NCBI GenBank assembly: GCA_963822175.1
Contig: CAWGGJ010000003.1
Coordinates: 198,802-262,801, forward strand
Reading direction: 5' to 3'
DNA from: an uncultured Chloroflexia bacterium
GTDB lineage: Bacteria; Chloroflexota; Anaerolineae; Anaerolineales; UBA4823
DNA length: 64,000 bases
Part shown: positions 19,033 through 57,595 of the stretch, one piece after another
Layout: each line of letters begins with the position of its first letter
Numbering within the stretch: position 1 is the stretch's first letter
Made by a program: the position numbers and the translations under genes
Notes under the pieces: model-generated
Told to the model about the DNA's origin: nothing
The model's input: the letters and a program-made list of their open reading frames with translations, nothing else
The model's database searches: none

Positions 19033-19440
19033 ATGAAAACCAAGAAATACGTTAATATCATCAATCAGGCAAGCCAGGAATCAAAGCCCATACTGGCAGA
19101 GTACTGCCAGTCTTTTTTTTGTCAATTGCGCGGTTTAATGTTCAGGAAGAGTTTACCGGATAATCATGGCTTGTTGTTGGTTCAAAAAACTGACAGCAAG
19201 ATGAATGCATCCATTCACATGATGTTTATGTGGATGGACCTGGCAGTAATTTGGATTAATAATGAAAATGTGGTCGTTGACCTGGTACTGGCACGCCGGT
19301 GGAAACTGGCTTATATACCCAGAGCTGCAGCCAGGTATGTGCTGGAAACCAGTGAATCTCACTTGGCAGATTATAAGATTGGCGACGAAGTGGAATTCGA
19401 ATTTTTAGCTCAGGATATGTATGCGAAAAATCATTTATAG
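19033..19440 (+). CDS. DUF192-family protein
   Basis: RGLMFRKSLPDNHGLLL...SIHMMFMWMDLAVIWIN...ARYVLE resembles the DUF192/COG1430 pattern. Confidence 0.55.
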   Translation: MKTKKYVNIINQASQESKPILAEYCQSFFCQLRGLMFRKSLPDNHGLLLVQKTDSKMNASIHMMFMWMDLAVIWINNENVVVDLVLARRWKLAYIPRAAARYVLETSESHLADYKIGDEVEFEFLAQDMYAKNHL

Positions 19441-20827
19441 GATCTTCTTAATCCTTGCTTTTCTCTCGCTGATTCCATTGGAAGGGGCAAAAGCCCAAAT
19501 TACGACCTCCACTGGTCCAGTTTACATCGTTCAGGAAGGCGACAATCTCTCGGACATTGCCTATCGTTTTCACGTAACTCCGGAAGCCCTGGCCAATGCC
19601 AATGGGATAGTGAATATCAATCAGATCACCATCGGGCAATCGCTTACCATTCCCGGGTTGGAAGGGATTTCTGGCATCCTGACTACACAGGTGGTTCCGT
19701 TTGGTGAGACGTTGCGCAGTTTAAGCCTGCGATACCAAATACCACCCCAAATCCTTAAACGGTTAAACCATATCACTAGTCCCACCGAGTTGTATGCTGG
19801 ATATTCTCTGGTGATTCCACTTGACGAAAACCCTGCTTCATCGGGTAAAAGGATCATTGTGAATCCTGGCCAATCTTTGCTGGAGTTGGCTGTCCTTAAT
19901 GAGACCGATCCTTGGAAGCTCATGGTAGATAACGACCTTGAATATAGCTCCCTTGCTCTCCCTGGTGAAGTCTTGCGTTCGCCCGGCGAGGAAGATCCTG
20001 GCCCCGGATCCTTACCTCCCGAGATAACTTCAGCCATAATATCAGACTTGATCCAGGGTCAAACTGCAGAGATCCAGTTGACTGGCGATGAAGAGCTCAC
20101 CATCGATGGTTCCTTAATGGATCATCCTTTAAATTTCTTCCCATATAGCGATAAGCGCTACATTGCCTTTCAAGGTGTGCATGCCATGGCAGAGCCTGGC
20201 CTGTACCCGTTAACCCTGCAAGGCAGCACACCAGGTGGTGCGAAATTTGATTTCTCACAGATGGTGAAGGTTAACCCAGGCGATTTCCTGTATGACAGAC
20301 CGCTTCCGGTTGATCCTGCTACCTTGGACCCCGAGACAAACCGAACTGAAAATGATCTTTGGTACAGCACATCTTCTGTTGTAACTCCTGATATTTTATG
20401 GGATGGTCCTTTCTCTGTACCAGTGGATCCAGTCTTTGCGGATTGCTATTCTTCAATATTTGGAAGCCGGCGTTCATATAACGGTAGTGAATACATTTAT
20501 TTCCACACCGGCCTGGATTATTGCGGTGCGGTTGGTAATTCAATATATGCTGCAGCCCCAGGTGTGGTTGTATTTACCGGACCACTAACCGTGCGGGGGA
20601 ACGCCACCATGATTGACCATGGTAGGGGTGTTTACACAGCTTATATGCACCAATCGGAAATCCTGGTCAATGTTGGTGATCGTGTGGAACAAGGCCAGCT
20701 GATTGGAAAGGTTGGGAACACCGGCCGTGTAGAAGGTCCCCATTTACATTTTGAAGTTTTAGTGGGTACTGTTCAAGTTGACCCATTTGCGTGGTTAACT
20801 CAGAGTTTTCCGTCAGATGAGCCTTAA
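19421..20827 (+). CDS. Secreted LysM-domain M23 metallopeptidase
   Basis: Signal peptide. Two LysM repeats (YIVQEGDNLSDIAYRFHVTPEALANANG...GQSLTIP). C-terminal M23 motifs HTGLDY and GPHLHFEV. Confidence 0.85.
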   Translation: MRKIIYRIFLILAFLSLIPLEGAKAQITTSTGPVYIVQEGDNLSDIAYRFHVTPEALANANGIVNINQITIGQSLTIPGLEGISGILTTQVVPFGETLRSLSLRYQIPPQILKRLNHITSPTELYAGYSLVIPLDENPASSGKRIIVNPGQSLLELAVLNETDPWKLMVDNDLEYSSLALPGEVLRSPGEEDPGPGSLPPEITSAIISDLIQGQTAEIQLTGDEELTIDGSLMDHPLNFFPYSDKRYIAFQGVHAMAEPGLYPLTLQGSTPGGAKFDFSQMVKVNPGDFLYDRPLPVDPATLDPETNRTENDLWYSTSSVVTPDILWDGPFSVPVDPVFADCYSSIFGSRRSYNGSEYIYFHTGLDYCGAVGNSIYAAAPGVVVFTGPLTVRGNATMIDHGRGVYTAYMHQSEILVNVGDRVEQGQLIGKVGNTGRVEGPHLHFEVLVGTVQVDPFAWLTQSFPSDEP

Positions 20828-23459: not shown

Positions 23460-23535
23460 GCCCCTGTAGCTCAAAGGATAGAGCAGCAGCCTTCTAAGCT
23501 GTTGGTTGTGGGTTCGAATCCCGCCAGGGGCGCCA
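23460..23535 (+). tRNA. tRNA-Arg (anticodon UCU)
   Basis: Cloverleaf read by hand. Acceptor GCCCCTG/CAGGGGC. D arm GCTC-AAAGGATA-GAGC. Anticodon arm GCAGC-CTTCTAA-GCTGT. T arm GTGGG-TTCGAAT-CCCGC. Encoded CCA. Confidence 0.9.
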
Positions 23536-30395: not shown

Positions 30396-30992
30396 GTGGA
30401 TTTTTGGCATGCTGACTTGGTTCCCGACGAGCTGCCCGAAGAACAAAAAGCAAGCTGGCGGCGTACGCTCCTGGATACCCTCGAGACAATCTTATTATCC
30501 CTGGTTCTGTTTTTGGCTATCAATGCGATCTCAGAACGTATTCGGGTTGAATCAATCAGCATGCAGCCAACCCTGTATCCGGGTGATTATGTCATCGTAA
30601 ACAAGTTGGCTTATCGCTTCGATAAAAATCCCAGCCGCGGCGATGTGATTGTTTTTCGCTATCCACCTAACCCGGAAGCCATCCCTTACATTAAGCGTAT
30701 CATCGGACTTCCTGGGGATCAGATCCACATCGCTGATGGCAAAATATATATCAATGGTCAATTATTGCTTGAATCCTACCTTACTGTGACAACAAACCGT
30801 GGAGGCGATTGGAGTGTGCCTCCAGGTCAATTGTTTGTCATGGGTGATAATCGCAATAACTCTTCCGACTCCCGCACCTGGGGTTTCGTTCCATATGAAA
30901 ATATCATTGGACGAGCCGAGGTGATCTACTTACCCCCCCAACACTGGGCATTTCTTCATCAAAACATAGCGGTTGCTTCACCTGAGCCATAA
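30396..30992 (+). CDS. lepB: Signal peptidase I
   Basis: Membrane helix followed by the catalytic Ser box SMQPTL, the Lys box YIKRIIGLPGD, and GDNRNNSSDSR. Confidence 0.9.
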   Translation: MDFWHADLVPDELPEEQKASWRRTLLDTLETILLSLVLFLAINAISERIRVESISMQPTLYPGDYVIVNKLAYRFDKNPSRGDVIVFRYPPNPEAIPYIKRIIGLPGDQIHIADGKIYINGQLLLESYLTVTTNRGGDWSVPPGQLFVMGDNRNNSSDSRTWGFVPYENIIGRAEVIYLPPQHWAFLHQNIAVASPEP

Positions 30993-31037: not shown

Positions 31038-31064
31038 ATGTAACAAAATGTTGGGATTCTCGTT
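31038..31064 (+). promoter_or_regulatory. ECF-type promoter upstream of the sigma gene
   Basis: ATGTAACAA...CGTT: AAC (31042-31044), 16 nt, CGT (31061-31063). The same motif with the same spacing recurs at 32486-32512. Confidence 0.45.
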
Positions 31065-31079
31065 CATTAAGGTGAATGC

Positions 31080-31637
31080 ATGCCAGGCAGGCTTGACGAA
31101 GATCATGAGCTGATTAAAAAAGCCCAACGAGGTGATATCGATGCCTTTGGTGATCTATACGAAAGCCATGCACCGGTTGTTTTCCGTTATCTTTATTCCC
31201 ACCTGGATAGCCGGATGGATGCTGAAGATTTAACGGGTGAGGTTTTTTTAAAGGCCTGGCAATCCTTACCAAGATATATCGAGCGCGGTGTGCCCTTCCT
31301 GGCGTTCCTTTTCCGGATTGCTCGCAATGTTCTTGTTGATCACTTCCGTCAAAATAACCGGCTGGAGTCAAAAGATCCGGATGAGATGGATGGATATAAA
31401 GCAGAAAACTTCGCTGAACCGGTTGATTTGGTTGGAAGTCAAATGGAACACCAGAGGATCGTAAATGTGTTGGATAAGTTGCGCCCCGACTACCAATCCG
31501 TCCTTACCCTGCGGTTCATCAGTGAGCTCTCACCTGAGGAAATTGGTCGGGTGATGAATCGCTCAGTTGGCGCTGTTCGGGTTTTACAACACCGTGCATT
31601 GGCAGCATTACGGGAAGAAATGGAAAAGCAAAGTTAA
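31080..31637 (+). CDS. ECF (group 4) RNA polymerase sigma factor
   Basis: Region 2 (FGDLYESHAPVVFRYLYSH...DAEDLTGEVFLKAW) and region 4 (LRFISELSPEEIGRVMNRSVGAVRVLQHRAL). Confidence 0.9.
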   Translation: MPGRLDEDHELIKKAQRGDIDAFGDLYESHAPVVFRYLYSHLDSRMDAEDLTGEVFLKAWQSLPRYIERGVPFLAFLFRIARNVLVDHFRQNNRLESKDPDEMDGYKAENFAEPVDLVGSQMEHQRIVNVLDKLRPDYQSVLTLRFISELSPEEIGRVMNRSVGAVRVLQHRALAALREEMEKQS

Positions 31638-31639
31638 TT

Positions 31640-32404
31640 ATGAAGATTGAACGACAGATTGACCAGATCATCCAGGATGCCCTGCCCGCCATCACAAGTG
31701 GAAATGAAACCCTTGAATCGGTGGTTGCCAGGCATCCTCAGATCGCAGCGGAGCTTCAACCCAGGCTTGAAGCTGCCATCTGGTTGCAAGGGTCCAGGTT
31801 TGCCATGGCTACCAGGCCAGGATATATCCACGATTCACGAAAGGTTCTGGAAGCAACAATAAAGTCCCTGCAACCGATCGGTTTTTGGCACCGCCTTTCG
31901 AGGCTCTATTCGCCCCAGCGCTGGGTCTTTAACTTTGCTTCTGCAATAATTGTGGTGCTTCTCCTTTCTCTGGTGATCAATAGTTCGATCTTGACTGCCC
32001 GATTATCCATCCCTGGCGATCCTTTATTTTCTACAAAGCTGGTCATTGAGGATCTTCAGTTAGCATTTACGCGTGATCCAGTTGAGAAAGCCAATCTGCA
32101 CGCTCAGTTTTCGCGTGAACGGGCTCTCGAATTTATCGAACTGGTTATGGAAGGAGAATATGATTACCTACCCTCCGCGGCATACCGCATGGAAGCCGAG
32201 ATCATTGGTTCCTTGCATGCCTTGAATAATATCCCAACCGATGATGCATCGGCCGGGGCGGCACTGACCGTGAATTTGCGGGATGTTTTATCCAATGAAA
32301 TTTCCATGTTAATTCTGCTAAAAGAAACCTCTCCAAGCTATGCCTACCCAGGGATTGACCTGGCGATCCAGGTGGCTCAGGCAGGTGAATTAGCACTAAG
32401 ATGA
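31640..32404 (+). CDS. Probable cognate anti-sigma factor (single-pass membrane protein)
   Basis: Starts 2 nt after the sigma gene stop. One membrane helix (FASAIIVVLLLSLVINSSIL) separates a ~95-aa cytoplasmic part from an extracytoplasmic helical domain. Confidence 0.55.
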   Translation: MKIERQIDQIIQDALPAITSGNETLESVVARHPQIAAELQPRLEAAIWLQGSRFAMATRPGYIHDSRKVLEATIKSLQPIGFWHRLSRLYSPQRWVFNFASAIIVVLLLSLVINSSILTARLSIPGDPLFSTKLVIEDLQLAFTRDPVEKANLHAQFSRERALEFIELVMEGEYDYLPSAAYRMEAEIIGSLHALNNIPTDDASAGAALTVNLRDVLSNEISMLILLKETSPSYAYPGIDLAIQVAQAGELALR

Positions 32405-32485
32405 TTTTTTTTGTTAGGTTATGGTTCGCCTATCACAATTGATAGTTATTTTTAATGGTATAGGTTGTATGATTATAAGGAATCG

Positions 32486-32512
32486 ATGTAACAACGGGCT
32501 TTCATATCCGTT
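32486..32512 (+). promoter_or_regulatory. ECF-type promoter upstream of the TadE/TadG-like genes
   Basis: ATGTAACAA...CGTT: AAC (32490-32492), 16 nt, CGT (32509-32511). Identical core and spacing to the promoter at 31038-31064. Confidence 0.45.
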
Positions 32513-32608
32513 AATCAGATTAGTAAATAATACGAACTATTAATTGCATGACTGATATAATATGTAAATTAAAATTGTCTGCATTGCACCATCCTGGAGA
32601 AAGCGTTT

Positions 32609-33826
32609 ATGAGTAAATTAAAGAACATCTTCAGTCGGAAGAATAAGGAACATGCCCAGACCATGGTTGAGTTTGCCCTGGTTTTCCCATTTATATTATT
32701 AATTACTTATGGGATCATCGAGTTTGGGCGGATGGTCTTTATCTATACCGCGGTGACTGGTGCCGCTCGTGAAGGTGCCAGGTATGGAGCAGCTGCAGGA
32801 GATCTGGGTAATAACCTTACCCGTTATTACATGGACTGTACTGGAATATTGAACGCAGTGCAGCGGGGTGCCATCCTTACCCCGATCAATTCCAATGATG
32901 TGACGATCTGGTACGACCATGGTCCCGATACGAATCATATTAAAAATACCTGTCCCCCAGAAGATGCGAATGGCAAGGATTTGATAAACATCGGGGACCG
33001 CATCGGGGTACATGTTGTTGCCCACTTCTCACCGATCATCCCAATTCTCGGCGTGGATGGTTTTGACATTAACTCGGAAAATGCCCGCACCATCCTGGTC
33101 AATGTGGATGTGGTTGGCACACCCATGCCTCCCATGCCCACCAACACCCTCACCCGCACACCCGGACCTTCCCCTACCAGAACCCCTAACTATACTCCCA
33201 CAATATCTCCGACATCGACTCAATCCGGCACACCGACCCATACCCCAACTGTTACCCAGACCTGGGATCCGACCCAAACACCCACCATCACTCCCACACC
33301 GGCATGTATCATCAACAACGATGGCATGACCATTGGTTATGACTTCTTCGAATGGACATTAACCAGCCGAAGTACGGCGTTGGTTCGTTTGCAGGTTGCC
33401 GGCATCACCTGGCCTGGCTATCAATTGAATCCATTGGCTATCTCACCTGCACCTGGTGGCGGAAATATTTTAGCGAAAACTGACACACCGACTCCAACTT
33501 CCACAATTACCCCAACTGCCGCACCAACGTCGACTGCCTCAGTGACACCAACCATCACCCCTACCCCCGTTCCATCGGATAATCTTATTCAGGTCGATAT
33601 CGGTGTAAATGCTGTCTGGCAAGGGAACCAGCCACCCACCTCCTGGTCTACGGGCAGCTGGACTGGTGATCAATCCCGGAGAGAGCTTAGTCCAGGTGGC
33701 TCGCATACCCTCACATTCTCATTCTCGGACTATTTACCGACCGGAGATTATGCTGGTACATTGACCTACGTGAATGTGACGACCGGGCAAACTTGCAGCG
33801 TATCATTTTCGGAATATAAGCCATAA
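32609..33826 (+). CDS. TadE-like pseudopilin with two Pro/Thr-rich linkers and extra C-terminal domains
   Basis: TadE N-terminal signature AQTMVEFALVFPFILLITYGIIEFGRMVF. PT-rich tracts at roughly aa 172-232 and 292-322 (PTxTPT repeats). Confidence 0.75.
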   Translation: MSKLKNIFSRKNKEHAQTMVEFALVFPFILLITYGIIEFGRMVFIYTAVTGAAREGARYGAAAGDLGNNLTRYYMDCTGILNAVQRGAILTPINSNDVTIWYDHGPDTNHIKNTCPPEDANGKDLINIGDRIGVHVVAHFSPIIPILGVDGFDINSENARTILVNVDVVGTPMPPMPTNTLTRTPGPSPTRTPNYTPTISPTSTQSGTPTHTPTVTQTWDPTQTPTITPTPACIINNDGMTIGYDFFEWTLTSRSTALVRLQVAGITWPGYQLNPLAISPAPGGGNILAKTDTPTPTSTITPTAAPTSTASVTPTITPTPVPSDNLIQVDIGVNAVWQGNQPPTSWSTGSWTGDQSRRELSPGGSHTLTFSFSDYLPTGDYAGTLTYVNVTTGQTCSVSFSEYKP

Positions 33827-33837
33827 CGGAGCGTATT

Positions 33838-34272
33838 ATGGTTCATGATAAAAAATTAGAAGACAAAGAGCGCGGTCAAAGCATGGTCGAGCTGGCCCTG
33901 ACAATCACCATCCTAATGGTCCTCTTGGCTGGCACAATCGATATGGGTCGAGCTTTCTTCACCTGGCTGGCACTGCGTGATGCTGCTCAGGAAGGTGCTT
34001 CCTTCGGTTCCATCTATCCTTCCTACACAAATTTAATCAGATTACGGGTATGGGATAACCTGGAGCAGGTCGTTCCAGATCCAAAAACTGATGTTAATGT
34101 TACGGTCGGATATATCGACCATCCATGTCTTGGGAATACAATTTTGGTTAGCGTAGACTACCCAAATTTTCCTCTCACCATGCCCTTTCTGGGTACGATA
34201 CTTGGCTCACAAACCCTCAACATTCACGCCAGTGTGAATGACTCAATCCTGAAGCCAATTTCTTGTCCATAG
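33838..34272 (+). CDS. TadE/TadF-like pseudopilin
   Basis: RGQSMVELALTITILMVLLAGTIDMGRAFF, the TadE-family N-terminus. Confidence 0.75.
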   Translation: MVHDKKLEDKERGQSMVELALTITILMVLLAGTIDMGRAFFTWLALRDAAQEGASFGSIYPSYTNLIRLRVWDNLEQVVPDPKTDVNVTVGYIDHPCLGNTILVSVDYPNFPLTMPFLGTILGSQTLNIHASVNDSILKPISCP

Positions 34273-34296
34273 CAATGGTTTATTAAGGAGGCTATT

Positions 34297-35544
34297 ATGG
34301 TTATTAAGAATAACTCTGAAAAAGGTCAGGCGATTATTTATCTGGTCATCGGGTTTGTTGTCTTTCTCGGTTTTGTTGCTCTGGCAGTCGATGGTGGCAT
34401 GGCCCTCGCTGATCGTCGTCACTCACAGAATGCTGCTGATGCTGCTTCTTTAGCAGGCGGCGCGGAAGCTGCCCTGACCCTGGAGCAATGGGGAATAGAC
34501 TATAAAAACTGGAATTGTAATCCTAATTATCAGGCCCTGGCAAATGCCGAGAACACCGCGATCAGCCGGGCTGGAGCTAACAACTTTCCAATTGACGGCA
34601 ATCCTGACGATCACAATGGAGTGGTTGCTGATTGCGGTGTCACCTATTACCCCTGGTGGGGCGATAAAGGGGATGTCTATATCGATGTGACTGTGGATAT
34701 CTCAGCGACCACGCCCAGTAATTTCTTGCATATCCTTTACCCTGGAGTATTGCATAACGAGGTGGATGCCGTCACCCGTGTTCGACCTCGCCAGCCGATT
34801 GCCTTCGGAAATGCCATCGTGGCATTGAACCCGGAAAGTTGCTTGGGGCACCAGAACGGTGGGATTATGTACGGTAACGAGGATATCGAACTCCATGGTG
34901 GCGGTGTATTTTCCAATGGTTGCCTGCGGGGTAACGGAAATGGAGATGTTGATATCTATGATGGGCTGCCTTTGGGGAATGAACTGGACCCCGGTAATAT
35001 TGATTGGAATCCACCCCCAGAACCAGTTGATTTTCAAATTCCCGATGCAACCTATGCTGTGCCTCTCCCGAACTGCGCCGGTCATTGGGTTGATGAACTG
35101 GATGAGATGCCGACCTTGTTAAACGGGCTGTATTGCCTCAATGGAGACTTAAAGATCAATGCCAATGAGGTGTATTCAAGTACGATGGATGGGATCACGA
35201 TTTTCGTACCCAATGGGAGTGTAAGTATCAATGGTACCGCAAAACTGACCATCACTGCTCCCCCTTCTGACTCTCATCCTGACCCTGCCATTCCAGGGGT
35301 TCTGCTCTACCTGCCTCCTTCTAATCCAAGACCCGTGCAAATCAATGGAACATCGGATTCTGTATTCACGGGTTTGATCCTTGCTCCACGCTCTGAAATC
35401 GAGCTGAACGGCACGGGTGGCAATTCCTATGTCGGGCAGGTGGTCGGTTGGAATGTGCTCGTGGGAGGTACTGCTGACCTGTATCTCGTTTATAATCCGG
35501 ATGATGTATATAATACCCCCACCTCGATCGAGCTGGCAAAATAA
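34297..35544 (+). CDS. TadG-like protein (Flp-pilus-assembly TadG N-terminal domain)
   Basis: KGQAIIYLVIGFVVFLGFVALAVDGGMALADRRHSQNAADAASLAG matches the TadG-type N-terminus. Confidence 0.75.
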   Translation: MVIKNNSEKGQAIIYLVIGFVVFLGFVALAVDGGMALADRRHSQNAADAASLAGGAEAALTLEQWGIDYKNWNCNPNYQALANAENTAISRAGANNFPIDGNPDDHNGVVADCGVTYYPWWGDKGDVYIDVTVDISATTPSNFLHILYPGVLHNEVDAVTRVRPRQPIAFGNAIVALNPESCLGHQNGGIMYGNEDIELHGGGVFSNGCLRGNGNGDVDIYDGLPLGNELDPGNIDWNPPPEPVDFQIPDATYAVPLPNCAGHWVDELDEMPTLLNGLYCLNGDLKINANEVYSSTMDGITIFVPNGSVSINGTAKLTITAPPSDSHPDPAIPGVLLYLPPSNPRPVQINGTSDSVFTGLILAPRSEIELNGTGGNSYVGQVVGWNVLVGGTADLYLVYNPDDVYNTPTSIELAK

Positions 35545-35654
35545 GATTCAAATCACCCAATAAACGCCGGGCGGTAAATGTGAACTGAACCCCTAAAACA
35601 AGACAGAAAAAGAAAGCACCTCGTGCGAAAATAAAAGCAGGAGGTGCTTTTTAT

Positions 35655-36002
35655 ATGGCTGGGAAACACGGAATGCGACATTACAGCAAGGAAACCAAAC
35701 TACTCGCTGTGCAGATGTACCTCGAACTAGGAAAGAGTCAGGCACAAATAGCACAAGAGTTGGGTTTACCGCGGAAAGAGCTGGTTGAGCAATGGGTACA
35801 TCGTTATCGTCACGAAGGGGAAATCGGCTTCTGTAAGCCGATTGGCAGACCGCGAAAATCCCCACAGTCTCAGCAAGCCTATATTGCTCGACTAGAAATG
35901 GAAAATGCTCTGCTAAAAAAATACCACACCGAGTTGCGCAAAGCTATGCTCGCGAGGCGCGATATCGGGTTATTGAACACTACCGAGGAGTATACCCCGT
36001 GA
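35655..36002 (+). CDS. IS3 transposase OrfA (helix-turn-helix plus leucine zipper)
   Basis: [30 protein letters not shown]... and the coiled segment [15 protein letters not shown]. Confidence 0.85.
35915..35921 (+). promoter_or_regulatory. Programmed -1 ribosomal frameshift heptamer A_AAA_AAA
   Basis: Seven A read as CTA AAA AAA TAC in the orfA frame. The -1 (orfB) frame is open from 35837 onward. The fusion reads ...[49 protein letters not shown]. Confidence 0.6.
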
Positions 36003-36808
36003 ATGGGATGTGTAACTTCTTTGGGATCTCGCGAGCTGCCTACTATGCTTGGTGTCAGCGTATCAACCGGCCCGATCCAGACCGTGAACGCAAGCACTAT
36101 GTCTTAGAAGCATATCAGGCATCCCGAAAGAGGTATGGTTATCGACGTATCAGCTTGTGGTTGCGGAAGAAACGGTCAGTAATTATCAACCATAAGGCAG
36201 TGCTGCGGCTCATGAACCGCCTAGGCATTCATTCGGTTGCCCGTCAGCGCAAACCATTCCAGAAAATGAGCCGATTACCCATCTATCACCGCTACGAAAA
36301 TGTATTGCTTCGCAATTTCAACGCCAGCCGACCGAACCAAAAGTGGGTCACCGACATTACCTATGTGGCCACAGGACAGGGATTCGCATATCTGGCGGTG
36401 ATCAAGGACCTGTTTGACGGTTTCATTGTTGCCCACAAGCTCAGCCAGGACAATTCAGTTGCCCTGGTGACCCATACCCTCCAGCAGGCCTTTCAGAAAG
36501 AAATGGCCACTGATGGATTGATCCTCCACAGTGACCAAGGACATCAATACACCTCACACGCGTATCACGTCCTGACTCAACAGTATAACATCATCCCTTC
36601 CATGTCACGAAGGGGTAACTGTTGGGATAATGCGCCTATGGAGAACTTCTTTAGTCATCTCAAAGAAGAAGCGCTCCGTCATATTAATATCACCTCTTTT
36701 GAGGAGGCCAAGAATGTAGTTGACGAATATATTAACTTTTTCAATTATGAACGGTTACAATTGAAAACAAAACAGACACCCTACGAAGTAAGGTGTCTGT
36801 CCAGTTGA
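35999..36808 (+). CDS. IS3 transposase OrfB (DDE/rve integrase core), probably expressed as an OrfAB fusion
   Basis: [10 protein letters not shown] (first D), [10 protein letters not shown] (second D), [18 protein letters not shown] (E). Lies in the -1 frame relative to orfA. Confidence 0.85.
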
Positions 36809-36880
36809 GATAGAGGCCGCTTTCTTTTTTTGTCTACATTATAGGGTGCACTTCAATGATACCGCCCGTTTTTATTTTTA

Positions 36881-36993
36881 GCACGCTCCGGGCAAGCTAC
36901 CCGGCGGCACCCGGAATATCCTCCTTACTGCTGCTTCTTCTCAGACCTGACAGGGTTCAAAGGGTTCCGCCGCGCCGGACCCACCCGGAGCGC
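36881..36993 (-). ncRNA. ffs: Signal recognition particle RNA (small, 4.5S type)
   Basis: The minus strand reads ...CCCUGUCAGGUCU-GAGA-AGAAGCAGCAGUAAGG..., matching the universal domain IV CAGGUCAGGUCC-GGAA-GGAAGCAGCCAAGG. A GNRA tetraloop and compensatory closing pairs are present. A closing helix GCGCUCCGGG / CCCGGAGCGU and an internal CCGGCG / CGCCGG helix give a ~113-nt hairpin. Confidence 0.8.
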
Positions 36994-37022: not shown

Positions 37023-37334
37023 TCAATGTTTTGATTTCCACCTCGGGCTGATCAATACGCCCCCGATGATGATCAATACCAATATGCTCCCCCCAAAAAC
37101 CAGCAGGGCATTGTTCCCGACAGGTGGCAGCTCCCGGGGTTCCGGTGTCTCTGTTAATTGTTGAGTTGGGGTAGCAGATTGAATCGGTGACTGGGTTGCC
37201 AGCTGGTATTTACCAAATTCCCTTTCATCGCTGAGCCCTAGATTATTCATCGCATGTGCAACCTGCGTGAAACTGGCCATAACCATCACGCCTGCCATCA
37301 AGACCATCACCCAGAGTATTTGCTTATTTTTCAT
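37023..37334 (-). CDS. Small secreted protein with a C-terminal anchor / sorting-signal-like tail
   Basis: Signal peptide MKNKQILWVMVLMAGVMVMASFTQVAHA. The C-terminus reads ETPEPRELPPVG-NNALLVFGGSILVLIIIGGVLIS-PRWKSKH: a motif, then a hydrophobic helix, then a basic tail. Confidence 0.5.
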   Translation of the reverse strand: MKNKQILWVMVLMAGVMVMASFTQVAHAMNNLGLSDEREFGKYQLATQSPIQSATPTQQLTETPEPRELPPVGNNALLVFGGSILVLIIIGGVLISPRWKSKH

Positions 37335-39325: not shown

Positions 39326-39415
39326 TGGCGGAGAGAGAGGGATTTGAACCCTCGTTCCCTTGCGGGAAACACGCTCTCCAGGCGTGCGCGCTAGGCCAGA
39401 CTACGCGATCTCTCC
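39326..39415 (-). tRNA. tRNA-Ser (anticodon GGA), type II with a long variable arm
   Basis: Reverse complement: GGAGAGA..GCACGC-CTGGAGA-GCGTG-TTTCCCGCAAGGGAAC-GAGGG-TTCAAAT-CCCTC-TCTCTCC-G-CCA. Length 90 nt. Confidence 0.9.
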
Positions 39416-51939: not shown

Positions 51940-52206
51940 TTATTCCAGGTACTCATTGATATTTAAAGTTTTGTATAAACGCTCGCGCATATCGCTAGGG
52001 ATATCCTCGGTTTCAGCAGCCTCGTGATACAGATAAACGGTTTTTCTAAGCGTATCAACCACGATACGGCAGTTTTCACATTCTTCCATGTGTTGTTCCA
52101 AGACACTACACAATTCCTCGTTTAACTCCCCATCTACATATTCCGATAATGAACCGAGCAATTTTCGGCAATCCTTGTGCTCATGTTTTTTTGTTGTTCC
52201 GTTCAT
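51940..52206 (-). CDS. Zinc-finger (zf-HC2) anti-sigma factor, cytoplasmic
   Basis: H-x3-C-x2-C pattern: LEQHMEECENCR, preceded by CRKLLGSLSEYVDGEL. A 4-nt overlap with the upstream sigma gene. Confidence 0.7.
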   Translation of the reverse strand: MNGTTKKHEHKDCRKLLGSLSEYVDGELNEELCSVLEQHMEECENCRIVVDTLRKTVYLYHEAAETEDIPSDMRERLYKTLNINEYLE

Positions 52207-52901
52207 TCTATTTCTTCTCCTTTGGAATGGAGAAGCATGTTCTCCTGGTCATTTTTAGAGATATCATTTGATGCATCAAGATTTGTTCCACGCATGAGTT
52301 TCGCTCTATCTCCAAAATAAGAAGATAGATCTTCCCTTAGGCGTAACCGCGCTCGTGATAGCCGTGTTTTTACTGCTGTATCGCTTAATCCTAAAATCTC
52401 ACCGGTTTCATGTGTCGACATGTCATTAATGTCCCGCAGTAAAAAAACAACCCTTAAGCTTTCTGGCAACCTTTGAACTGCTTTATCCAATCTTTCTCTC
52501 AATTCTTCAGACAATAACTCACTTTCTGGCAAACAACACCAATCTACGATCTGCACCGGTTCCTGTTCGCCTTCCTCAGTTTCCACAGGTTCATCGATGG
52601 AGATAACATTTAGATGTTTTCGACGTAAAACCATTAATGCTTCATTCGTAGCGATCCTGAATAACCACGTGGATAGCTTTGAGCGGCCATCAAAAGATTT
52701 TAGACCTCGGTATGCCTTTAAAAAAGTCTCCTGTAAAACATCCTCAGCATCTTGCTCATGGTTCAGCATTTTCGTCGCCAGGCGATATATTTTGCTCGAA
52801 TATGCATCCACCAGGTGAGAAAACTCTTCTGGGTCACCGGCCTGCAGCTTCTCTAGCGAAAATCCTTCGGCTAAAACCTTATTCTCGTATTCAACACTCA
52901 T
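52203..52901 (-). CDS. ECF-type RNA polymerase sigma factor
   Basis: Region 2 (FSHLVDAYSSKIYRLATKMLNHEQDAEDVLQETFLKAY) and region 4 (VFLLRDINDMSTHETGEILGLSDTAVKTRLSRAR). Confidence 0.9.
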   Translation of the reverse strand: MSVEYENKVLAEGFSLEKLQAGDPEEFSHLVDAYSSKIYRLATKMLNHEQDAEDVLQETFLKAYRGLKSFDGRSKLSTWLFRIATNEALMVLRRKHLNVISIDEPVETEEGEQEPVQIVDWCCLPESELLSEELRERLDKAVQRLPESLRVVFLLRDINDMSTHETGEILGLSDTAVKTRLSRARLRLREDLSSYFGDRAKLMRGTNLDASNDISKNDQENMLLHSKGEEIE

Positions 52902-56557: not shown

Positions 56558-57595
56558 TTAAACCTTTCGAACGCCTTCTTTCAAGGCTTCCAATCTTGCT
56601 TGTGCTAATCCAGGCAGCGCTTCCATAGCATACATAGCCCCGCTACCTTCAATCGTAAGAGATGCGGAAATACTTCCGTATAATACAGCCTGGAGTGGAT
56701 CATAGGTTCTTCGATATCCCGCAAGAAAACCTCCACAAAATGAATCTCCTGCTCCAGTCGGATCTACTACCCTTGCCGGGTAGGCTGAGATTTCCCACCG
56801 GGAATTTGTCGCACGATCGTAGAGCAGCTGACCACGCTCACCTCTTTTTACCACCACGATTTCGCACCCACAATCACTTATTGCTTCTATCATTTCCCAT
56901 AAATCGGTCTTTCTGCCATGGAATAACATTCGCACCTCTTCTTCGTTGGGAAGAAAAGCAGTCAAACCACTGACTAAGGCTGGTATATCGTCCCAAAATG
57001 TTGGTGTCATTGTACCAGCCGACGGGTCGAGGGTCACAATTGTAAAGCCACCTTGGCGTAATACAGCTGGCAATAAAGAGTGAGTTAGAAAATCAATGGG
57101 ACAAAGATGTGCTGCAGATGCATCCAGGTAATCTGGTGAAATGTCGGATTGGCGTAAAGACGTGGCAGTCAGCTGTGTACGACTGTCATATGAATTCCTT
57201 CGTTGTGCGTAATTTAGCAACGCCTTGGGAAACTGTTGCTCCAACCGCGTAAAATGTGCAGCCGGGTCCTCGGTCAGACGGGTGTACATATCCGTATACA
57301 CATAAAAAGAGCGCAAGTCAATGGCTTCAGGTAATACTCGAATACCCTGGGTATCGAAACCCCGCTTGGCAAGCTCAGCCAGCCAATCTCGAGGATAATC
57401 CTCACCAACCCTGGCTACCAAACCAAGGTGTTCCACAGGCTCCCACACACCAAAGCCTGCCGCGGCATAGATCAGGTTTCCACCTGGTACATCCACAAAA
57501 GCCCTTCCACCTGGGATGAGTGCAAAATCGCGTCGTAGTTGTCCTGCAATGACGTATCTCACTGAAGTCTCTGGCATGGTTTTTCCGATAATCAA
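56558..57595 (-). CDS. PfkB-family carbohydrate kinase
   Basis: C-terminal DPTGAGDSFCGGFLAG motif and overall ribokinase-fold length. Confidence 0.8.
   Translation of the reverse strand: MIIGKTMPETSVRYVIAGQLRRDFALIPGGRAFVDVPGGNLIYAAAGFGVWEPVEHLGLVARVGEDYPRDWLAELAKRGFDTQGIRVLPEAIDLRSFYVYTDMYTRLTEDPAAHFTRLEQQFPKALLNYAQRRNSYDSRTQLTATSLRQSDISPDYLDASAAHLCPIDFLTHSLLPAVLRQGGFTIVTLDPSAGTMTPTFWDDIPALVSGLTAFLPNEEEVRMLFHGRKTDLWEMIEAISDCGCEIVVVKRGERGQLLYDRATNSRWEISAYPARVVDPTGAGDSFCGGFLAGYRRTYDPLQAVLYGSISASLTIEGSGAMYAMEALPGLAQARLEALKEGVRKV

Follow-up and report, generated by a model that had tools for sequence, protein, structure and literature searches.

Many bacteria adhere and aggregate by means of Tad pili, and how the minor pilins that prime and cap these pili are controlled has hardly been known so far. 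In Myxococcus xanthus, the Kil minor pilins are required to prime Tad pilus polymerization and give it specificity, and the idea of an exchangeable Tad tip dates only from 2025 (PMC12075869). In the Anaerolineae, which are core filamentous members of digesters, sludge, and sediments, Tad pili are among the most transcribed functions; the conserved Tad cluster of the Anaerolineales is highly transcribed in digesters, has a proposed role in cell aggregation, and is described without tadE, tadF, or tadG being listed (PMC4877987). Here, we analyze a 64-kb stretch of DNA from an uncultured Anaerolineales bacterium (hereafter, the window, which is the only visible part of its source genome). In this window, genes for a sigma factor of the extracytoplasmic function (ECF) type and for a DUF5667 membrane protein, a putative anti-sigma factor, are followed on the same strand by genes for two TadE-class minor pilins and one large TadG-like minor pilin, and the same motif, GTAAC-N16-CGTT, stands before the sigma gene and before the first TadE gene.

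The characterized sigma factor closest to the one in the window by sequence is BldN of Streptomyces, a developmental regulator of chaplin and rodlin genes that is held by the membrane anti-sigma factor RsbN (PMC6101532, PMC4255298). BldN belongs to group ECF121, subgroup 1, and its N-terminal extension is a pro-sequence that is removed proteolytically (PMC7826278); divergence among RsbN homologues is known to be very rapid (PMC4255298). The BldN promoter is CGTAAC-N16-CGTTGA (PMC2375139); the corresponding sequences are CGTAAC-N16-CGATGA for ShbA and GTAAC-N17-18-CGAT for the ECF40 sigma factor SigD (PMC12019637).

We consider it likely that the locus in the window is an autoregulated, BldN-like switch made of an ECF sigma factor and a membrane anti-sigma factor, the conserved direct targets of which are its own operon and the adjacent Tad (type IVc) minor-pilin operon. 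An earlier, sequence-only reading of the window had proposed that the sigma/anti-sigma operon and the TadE-TadE-TadG operon have one ECF-type promoter in common. That proposal is now strongly backed by phylogenetic footprinting across related genomes, by a reverse test that starts from TadG, and by the match to the BldN promoter.

The motif in the window and in related genomes

The two copies of the motif lie exactly where the sequence-only reading had placed them, and its spacings and distances were reproduced when we re-measured them. The first copy (31038-31064, +), identified by motif and conservation as the predicted promoter P_sig of the sigma/anti-sigma operon, opens with ATGTAACAA at 31038-31046; its −35 element GTAAC (31040-31044) and its −10 element CGTT (31061-31064) are separated by a 16-nt spacer, and the distance from the end of the motif to the sigma ATG (31080) is 16 nt. 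The second copy (32486-32512, +), identified by motif and alignment as the predicted promoter P_tad of the minor-pilin operon, opens with the same ATGTAACAA at 32486-32494 and has GTAAC at 32488-32492, CGTT at 32509-32512, and again a spacer of 16 nt; here the distance to the ATG of the first TadE gene (32609) is 97 nt. Both copies thus have the AAC-N16-CGT geometry. From these positions, transcription from P_sig is predicted to start near 31070-31072, within the AAGGTGA ribosome-binding site, which would leave a leader of ~10 nt, and transcription from P_tad near 32519, with a leader of ~90 nt.

In a scan limited to the 64-kb window, the motif is above random frequency: GTAAC-N16-CGTT has 2 matches on both strands versus 0.27 expected. 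For the 13-base pattern ATGTAACAA-N14-CGTT, 2 occurrences in 64 kb compare with 0.01 expected, a number reached in 0 of 100 shuffles. Looser spacings and variants add just two matches in the window, both of them intragenic (52343, +; 29276, −), and a relaxed scan of the window gives one weaker TAAC-type match at 56924 (+), whose position relative to genes was not placed. Chance and a simple duplication of the promoter region are both rejected as explanations for the pair, because the two copies have different spacers and flanks, whereas the two blocks show conservation from species to species.

The leader between P_tad and the first TadE gene holds further conserved boxes in a 12-species alignment (32542-32590, +). 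An invariant TTGC box at 32544-32547 (alignment columns T75-C78, within TTAATTGCAT; TTATTGCA) lies ~30 nt past the −10 element, and a second box, ATTG(C/T), follows ~30 nt beyond it and is likewise conserved in the 12 species. These boxes may represent an operator, or else a second promoter of the sigma-70 type. A riboregulator in the 90-nt leader was considered and set aside: RNAalifold returned no consensus pairs, and the Rfam matches in the window are tRNAs and the signal recognition particle (SRP) RNA only.

To follow the motif through relatives, we compared 4 loci obtained from exact homologues and 36 obtained from a genome scan; those from GTDB genomes belong to metagenome-assembled genomes (MAGs) of the Anaerolineae, Anaerolineales, or Anaerolineaceae. 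In 30 non-redundant Anaerolineae loci, an exact GTAAC-N16-CGT is found 39-66 nt 5′ of the start of the orthologous sigma gene, and across these loci a spacer that is free to vary stands between a retained −35 block, TGTAACAA, and a retained −10 block, CGTT. The resulting sigma-upstream consensus is TGTAACAA-N14-CGTT(c/t)(a/t)A, with GTAAC-N16-CGTT as its core.

A weight matrix built from the sigma-upstream sites only, with the spacer masked, was then used to scan all loci and the window (~640 kb, both strands). All matches of at least 16 bits outside the training sites fall into three settings, namely 5′ of a TadE/TadG gene set, 5′ of a duplicated or variant sigma copy (loci L020, L026, and L027), and directly 3′ of the anti-sigma gene in L006, where the contig ends, and in L028, where ~1 kb of non-coding DNA comes next. 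Shuffled sequence gives ~0.19 matches at this threshold per 64 kb. P_tad scores 22.3 bits with this matrix, to which sites upstream of Tad genes made no contribution.

Tad genes follow the anti-sigma gene in 24 loci, and in 18 of them an exact or N17 motif precedes at least one Tad set. When the spacer between the anti-sigma gene and the first TadE gene is aligned for 12 species, the GTAAC and CGTT columns are invariant and the sequence between them varies. The order of sigma, DUF5667 protein, TadE, TadE, and TadG is kept down to ~50% sigma identity, so the block that the sequence-only reading had singled out is indeed conserved in relatives. Duplications follow the same pattern: the sigma/anti-sigma pair is tandemly duplicated before the Tad genes in L020 (10001-13840) and L044 (77-3679), with the motif kept by the second copy, and the extra TadE/TadG sets of L001, L009, and L045 have motif copies of their own. 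Loci chosen through the sigma gene carry a selection bias, which a reverse test starting from three TadG homologues on long contigs was meant to remove. An ECF sigma gene and a gene in the anti-sigma position lie upstream in 3/3 of these loci; the motif is at the expected place in 2/3, and a DUF5667 match was recorded only in L044. For a predicted promoter, the motif evidence is as strong as sequence alone can give.

L001, L009, L013, L016, and L018 each carry two or three TadE/TadG sets in a stretch of 10 kb. The coordinates of such multi-set loci are 11507-19376 in L001/L008, 6080-12299 in L009, and 12728-16572 in L013, with further cases in L016, L018, and L045; in some of these relatives a paralogous set has the order TadE2′-TadG′-TadE1′, and most sets have their own motif. 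A separate observation concerns L028 (2692-5380), whose sigma factor is 51% identical to that of the window. A strong motif at 2882 (20.9 bits) is followed there by ~1 kb without a clear open reading frame (ORF), and farther downstream by genes for a WbaP-like sugar transferase and an epimerase, so that the regulon may differ in this genome.

Sigma factor, putative anti-sigma factor, and minor pilins

The first gene behind P_sig (31080-31637, +) encodes a BldN-like ECF (group IV) sigma factor of 185 aa, in which Pfam detects regions 2 and 4 only (Sigma70_r2 at residues 26-94, Sigma70_r4_2 at 125-177) and which scores 102 bits against NCBIfam TIGR02937 (cut-off 42.9). Among NCBIfam families it scores best with TIGR02952, "BldN family" (141.5 bits), and next best with ShbA (118); as the former score is under the cut-off of 206.45, the protein is related to BldN without being its orthologue. 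In the PDB, the highest-scoring chain is that of S. venezuelae BldN (6dxo_A, 94 bits), and SigW comes next at 68. The protein is without an N-terminal pro-sequence: the sigma-2 domain begins at residue 26, and Met1 and Pro2 are invariant in an alignment of 14 sequences. Homologues number 930, and the best 120 of these 930 are 72-94% identical and come from Chloroflexi (MAGs) where a name is given; no exact copy of the window's sigma factor came up in the assembly collection. The main text of the ECF reclassification paper mentions neither Tad nor Chloroflexi. A BldN-like sigma factor found beside a BldN-like promoter serves as an independent consistency check. The sequence-only reading had called the sigma factor envelope-stress-type, a label that we found without basis since the nearest characterized sigma factor is the developmental regulator BldN.

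The second gene (31640-32404, +) starts 2 nt past the sigma stop codon and encodes a putative anti-sigma factor of 254 aa with a DUF5667 domain (Pfam, 1.9e-11). The protein is laid out as a cytoplasmic helical N-domain of ~90 aa, one transmembrane (TM) helix at ~92-118, and an outer DUF5667 domain. The N-domain bears the conserved motif YP..A.ELRP.LE.A.WL...PRPGF..SR, and the DUF5667 domain opens with a conserved xPGD. It has no Cys at all and is therefore not a zinc anti-sigma factor. An AlphaFold2 (AF2) model from the single sequence is all-helical and of low confidence (predicted local distance difference test, pLDDT, 59), with three N-terminal helices of which the third is long. A known anti-sigma domain was sought and not recovered, as the PDB searches gave coiled-coil noise only and Pfam gave DUF5667 only; a literature search for DUF5667 found no paper. 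The DUF5667 protein pairs with the sigma factor in all loci and is co-duplicated with it in L020 and L044. From this context and from its topology, we infer that the DUF5667 protein is the anti-sigma factor of the pair.

Directly upstream of the sigma gene, where the sequence-only reading had already recognized it, lies a gene for a LepB-like signal peptidase I (30396-30992, +; Pfam Peptidase_S26, 1e-49). The gene holds this position in 14 non-redundant loci with sigma identities of at least 59%, and in none at 57% or below; because it is absent upstream of the more distant sigma genes, it may be a mere housekeeping neighbor. No ECF motif precedes it, and the enzyme is probably housekeeping; a role as site-1 protease for the anti-sigma factor is speculative. 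Under a strict rule, 22 of 30 homologues have AXA-like small-residue motifs between the TM helix and xPGD, and to join these motifs and the upstream signal peptidase I into an RsiV-like activation step is purely speculative. At the small-residue site (~residues 110-128), distant relatives have ASA↓LPGD; the window has LTA↓RLS, which is not canonical (↓ marks a putative cleavage site here and below).

The operon behind P_tad encodes TadE1 (405 aa; 32609-33826, +; Pfam TadE, 6e-15), TadE2 (144 aa; 33838-34272, +; Pfam TadE, 7e-13), and the large TadG-like minor pilin (415 aa; 34297-35544, +; Pfam Tad, PF13400, 4e-12, and DUF7305). Their respective scores against TadE (PF07811) or Tad (PF13400) are 55.4, 49.0, and 46.8 bits versus cut-offs of 22.9, 22.9, and 22.3, and the 11-nt gap between the two TadE genes has GGAG inside. 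Each protein has its own class of leader. TadE1 reads MSKLKNIFSRKNKEH↓AQTMVEFAL, with Ala instead of Gly at the cleavage site (class leader ...KE(N/K/H)↓AQTMVEFAL). TadE2 reads ...DKER↓GQSMVELAL, a canonical G/XXXXE prepilin site (class leader ...(K/R)E(R/H)↓GQSMVELAL), and has a sub-threshold N_methyl match (18.4 bits versus a cut-off of 21.2). TadG reads ...NSEK↓GQAIIYL (class leader ...SE(K/R)↓GQAI(I/V)YL, lacking Glu at +5). In the relative L026, the Flp pilin, KEK↓GQGLVEYAL, has the same leader type as all three minor pilins, which argues for processing by the same prepilin peptidase and for co-assembly, cleavage being predicted.

TadE1 consists of a pilin head followed by two Pro/Thr-rich linkers with extra C-terminal modules, for which no Pfam family was matched. 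Its class-specific N-terminus is kept in ~25 orthologues, with lengths that range from 167 to 815 aa, and the N-terminus of TadE2 is conserved too; a TadE1-class protein in L045 has 996 aa with a Calx-beta domain. Length variation is found mainly in the TadE1 class, and TadG diverges in sequence at near-constant length. An AF2 model of TadG based on 48 homologues (pLDDT 87.2; predicted template modeling score 0.78) has a pilin-type N-terminal helix of 58 residues (7-64), an alpha/beta head, and a beta-rich part (189-413) that forms a beta-solenoid. Against the PDB, no match to this model was found at E ≤ 0.001; Foldseek gave weak resemblances only, with ice-binding-protein beta-helices best at E 0.02 and tapirin lower. 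The TadG-like protein is likely to be a tip or adhesive subunit. Within the close clade, identity is 72-81% for the sigma factor, 46-69% for the anti-sigma factor, and 32-58% for TadG; fast divergence of the latter two is to be expected of a sensor and of tip proteins that are exposed.

The sequence-only reading had also stated that no other part of a Tad system lies nearby. The statement stands: T2SSE, T2SSF, and Flp were not found among the window ORFs scanned, synteny with L002 standing in for a scan of the 37-44 kb stretch, and no Peptidase_A24 turned up in the window, where no dedicated A24 search was made and a few ORFs went unscanned. A hidden flp gene was sought by a six-frame motif search of the window, which returned the two TadE genes and one match internal to a LysM/M23 ORF (19421-20827), and this candidate was dropped. 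For this lineage, a lack of machinery in the neighborhood is nothing unusual. In L026 and L027 (sigma 51% identical), flp, cpaB, tadZ, cpaF, tadB, tadC, comFC, and hpf are followed by the module of sigma, anti-sigma, TadE, TadE, and TadG, with the full tad locus ~1.5 kb upstream of the module; a two-component system precedes flp. Two Anaerolineae-like contigs found through CpaF (L041, L042) carry a machinery cluster without tadE/G and have no sigma gene nearby. Among L026, L041, and L042, cpaB (RcpC) was detected only in L026. Since machinery clusters occur without tadE/G and the module abuts a tad locus elsewhere, the "pseudopilin-only" set of the window most likely represents dispersed Tad minor pilins. 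No ECF motif was found at any machinery cluster examined, and flp is preceded by a sigma-70-like TTGAT-N17-TATAAT; only the minor-pilin set, not the machinery, thus appears to be wired to the ECF sigma factor.

In the machinery clusters, genes for a ComFC-like protein and a ribosome hibernation factor always come after tadC (L026, 8451-9833; L041, 13425-14711; L042, 13432-14703). The ComFC-like protein has a double zinc ribbon, and a phosphoribosyltransferase domain was detected in L026. Flp pili have a known role in DNA uptake in Micrococcus, and the ComFC neighbor may therefore deserve attention.

A proposed switch and its alternatives

In the switch that we propose, the DUF5667 protein would hold the sigma factor at the membrane, as gene pairing and topology suggest, until an extracytoplasmic cue that is sensed by DUF5667 or acts on it frees the sigma factor. 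RNA polymerase with this sigma factor would then recognize TGTAACAA-N14-CGTT, for which the autoregulatory placement of the motif and the identical core of the BldN promoter argue. Transcription from P_sig would go up, which would provide positive feedback together with new anti-sigma factor, and transcription from P_tad would go up too. The minor pilins, whose class III leader is like that of Flp, would be processed into a priming or tip complex, by analogy with TadE/F/G and with the "Tips" of the Myxococcus Kil system, and a Tad machine encoded elsewhere would polymerize Flp on this complex. The sigma factor would in this manner gate both pilus building and the choice of tip, with the machinery and flp under their own sigma-70-like promoter and the adjacent two-component system. 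The cell probably controls pilus building through its priming and tip proteins.

A more far-reaching version of this proposal can be formulated, which we regard as rather doubtful. It would make the module a tip-based pilus-assembly checkpoint, in which DUF5667 senses a surface or envelope cue or unassembled pilins, is perhaps opened by signal peptidase, and releases a BldN-type sigma factor that solely fires one or several alternative tip operons; the cell would in this way choose when pili are made and which adhesive tip they bear, with the Tad motor and Flp under separate expression. In its widest form, BldN-type sigma factors reading GTAAC-N16-CGTT would be an ancient surface-fiber device of filamentous Terrabacteria that serves chaplins in Streptomyces and Tad tips in Anaerolineae.

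Several observations weigh against the BldN-like switch as we propose it. For the anti-sigma factor, neither RsbN (6dxo chain B) nor any other solved anti-sigma factor was matched in the PDB with the single sequence or with a 17-sequence profile, and the assignment of the DUF5667 protein comes from its context. At the Tad operon, no recognizable motif precedes the first Tad gene in 6 of the 24 loci (L005, L014, L021, L023, L024, and L036), and the first TadE/TadG set of L001 is also without one. No clear intrinsic terminator is found between the anti-sigma gene and P_tad, and read-through may therefore contribute to transcription of the Tad operon. The invariant TTGC box, together with a weak sigma-70-like match at 32548-32575 (9/12; the region has 18 such matches versus 11.6 ± 2.8 expected by shuffling), points to additional control. 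The Tad link has limits within the sigma family as well: Tad genes are missing downstream in relatives of at most 45% identity (L031-L034) and in L028, and the family is thus broader than this link. The tad machinery of the source genome lies outside the window, and another BldN- or ShbA-like paralogue could read the motif. Finally, none of the public RNA runs searched for the region contain it; the DNA runs that do are wetland, sediment, and soil metagenomes only.

These points can be assembled into different explanations. P_tad might be a real ECF promoter that is read by a different sigma factor, with its adjacency to this one coincidental. Candidates would be a BldN/ShbA-like paralogue, given that several ECF groups share a GTAAC-type −35 element (PMC12019637) and that the visible part of the genome amounts to just 64 kb, or the window's other ECF sigma factor (232 aa; 52203-52901, −). 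No GTAAC-N16-CGTT stands in the upstream promoter position of the latter gene, the nearby match at 52343 (+) being intragenic and on the opposite strand. A different sigma factor would have to be reconciled with an identical motif in the autoregulatory position of the present one in 30 loci, with a sigma/anti-sigma/Tad linkage that persists to ~50% sigma identity even when loci are chosen via TadG, and with the duplication of the motif along with the sigma pair in L020 and L044, and we hold this explanation to be highly improbable. Scarcely better are the prospects of an account in which the TadE-TadE-TadG operon is transcribed mainly by read-through or from a sigma-70-type promoter in the leader, and the GTAAC and CGTT blocks are, for instance, a transcription-factor site. 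The missing terminator after the anti-sigma gene, the weak site at 32548-32575, the invariant TTGC box, and the 6/24 loci without the motif would all fit. However, the blocks keep ECF geometry around a variable 16-nt spacer and are the same two as at the autoregulatory site, and the sigma-70-like match, at 9/12, is no better than the shuffled background.

The remaining explanation accepts the regulation and changes the role of the proteins, which would be membrane-anchored surface adhesins or parts of a separate pseudopilus on a monoderm-like envelope. No tad machinery was found among the window ORFs scanned, TadE1 has large and variable extensions (up to 996 aa, with Calx-beta) and an Ala at its cleavage site, and the beta-solenoid of TadG weakly resembles adhesive and ice-binding folds. 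All three proteins nevertheless carry the Flp-type leader of the lineage, and in L026 and L027 the module stands next to a full tad locus. The machinery clusters examined are also without other tadE/F/G genes, none of which is listed for the published Anaerolineales cluster either (PMC4877987). Genes of the tadE/F/G type are generally required for Tad pilus formation (PMC12075869). We consider an adhesin or pseudopilus role unlikely, and retain the BldN-like switch acting on Tad minor pilins as the reading that we favor.

Neighboring features and comparison with known systems

The window represents core chromosome, with genes for LexA, FtsH, FabH/FabF, EF-P, Lon, and SelB, the SRP RNA, and tRNAs (23460-23532, +; 39329-39415, −). 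Downstream of TadG, the region 35568-36868 holds an IS3-family insertion (element at ~35581-36855, +; Pfam HTH_Tnp_1 and rve, inverted repeats) with orfA at 35655-36002 and orfB at 35999-36808, both on the forward strand. The element has imperfect terminal repeats and a 3-bp ATG duplication. Its insertion point is within the loop of a terminator hairpin downstream of TadG, a hairpin with the arms CGGGCGG (35568-35574) and CCGCCCG (36862-36868); the split stem is followed by a T-run, TTTTTATTTT. In the relative L002, the same terminator is uninterrupted in the alignment. The IS3 element is not part of the system and removes the operon terminator, so transcription of the Tad operon could enter the transposase genes on the same strand. 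The bacterial small SRP RNA (36887-36986, −) comes right after the element. A 103-aa protein with a signal or anchor sequence (37023-37334, −) is kept beside the Tad set in relatives; it weakly matches a family of sortase-dependent surface proteins, with a score under the threshold.

If the proposal is true, the module in the window would contain the first regulator dedicated to Tad minor pilins. It would extend BldN-like promoter specificity from the Actinomycetota to the Chloroflexota, and would provide DUF5667 with a working hypothesis, that of an anti-sigma sensor domain. The predicted promoter TGTAACAA-N14-CGTT is compact, and sigma factor and promoter can be tested in E. coli without culture of the host; the motif may also be used to annotate tip-gene sets in Anaerolineae genomes. 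The sequence-only reading had suspected that such an arrangement was not previously described, and our literature searches agree, having found no ECF sigma factor dedicated to Tad minor pilins.

The nearest precedent is the effect of the ECF sigma factor SigX on flp-tad in Pseudomonas aeruginosa, where loss of SigX lowers flp and tad transcripts (PMC3832394). SigX differs in being a global regulator with 307 affected genes, and its effect is probably indirect, since the table entry for flp names PprB; a dedicated promoter motif or a minor-pilin linkage is not described in that study (PMC3832394). Bacillus subtilis sigma-V/RsiV similarly combines an ECF sigma factor with a single-pass anti-sigma factor, the destruction of which is begun by signal peptidase (PMC6066255, PMC4183432). 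RsiV carries DUF4179, whereas the window protein carries DUF5667 and has no sequence relationship to it, and we treat the likeness as a lead only.

On the pilus side, the Anaerolineales Tad cluster (flp/pilA-cpaB-cpaE-cpaF-tadB-tadC) belongs to the same lineage and is likely to be the machinery with which the module works, and the same gene set is found in L026, L041, and L042. That cluster has neither tadE/F/G nor a sigma factor listed, whereas the module supplies both, the two being adjacent only in some genomes (L026, L027). The closest parallel for the minor pilins is offered by the Kil Tips of M. xanthus (KilL/KilM/KilN), which are TadE/F/G-like triads encoded in clusters apart from the machinery (PMC12075869). 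Both systems have several, presumably alternative, sets per genome (here in L001, L009, L016, and L018) and one large subunit with a variable exposed domain. The differences are that the part of the Kil report available to us does not mention a dedicated sigma factor for the Kil Tips (PMC12075869), that the module here is linked neither to predation nor to a type III system and has a function proposed from its sequence, and that its variable subunit is mainly the TadE1 class.

The regulatory side compares best with BldN/RsbN. The promoter cores are alike (CGTAAC-N16-CGTTGA for BldN, PMC2375139, versus TGTAAC-N16-CGTT in the window), and, like RsbN, the putative anti-sigma factor is a single-pass membrane protein encoded by the adjacent gene, the helical N-domain of which (~100 aa) is cytoplasmic and the outer domain of which evolves fast (PMC6101532, PMC4255298). 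The two systems differ in that the sigma factor of the window is non-orthologous (~40% identity by eye from the HMMER alignment) and has no pro-sequence, and in that its partner carries DUF5667 and has no detectable similarity to RsbN. Moreover, rsbN has its own BldN-dependent promoter (PMC4255298), whereas sigma and anti-sigma genes in the window form one operon with the promoter before the sigma gene. What would be new here is the target class and an uncharacterized type of anti-sigma factor, in what is otherwise ordinary ECF behavior in uncultured hosts. The regulon comprises, or in the window would comprise, secreted structural proteins that build surface fibers in a filamentous bacterium: chaplins and rodlins, along with bldM, are the targets of BldN in the Actinomycetota, and Tad minor pilins would be those of its relative in the Chloroflexota.

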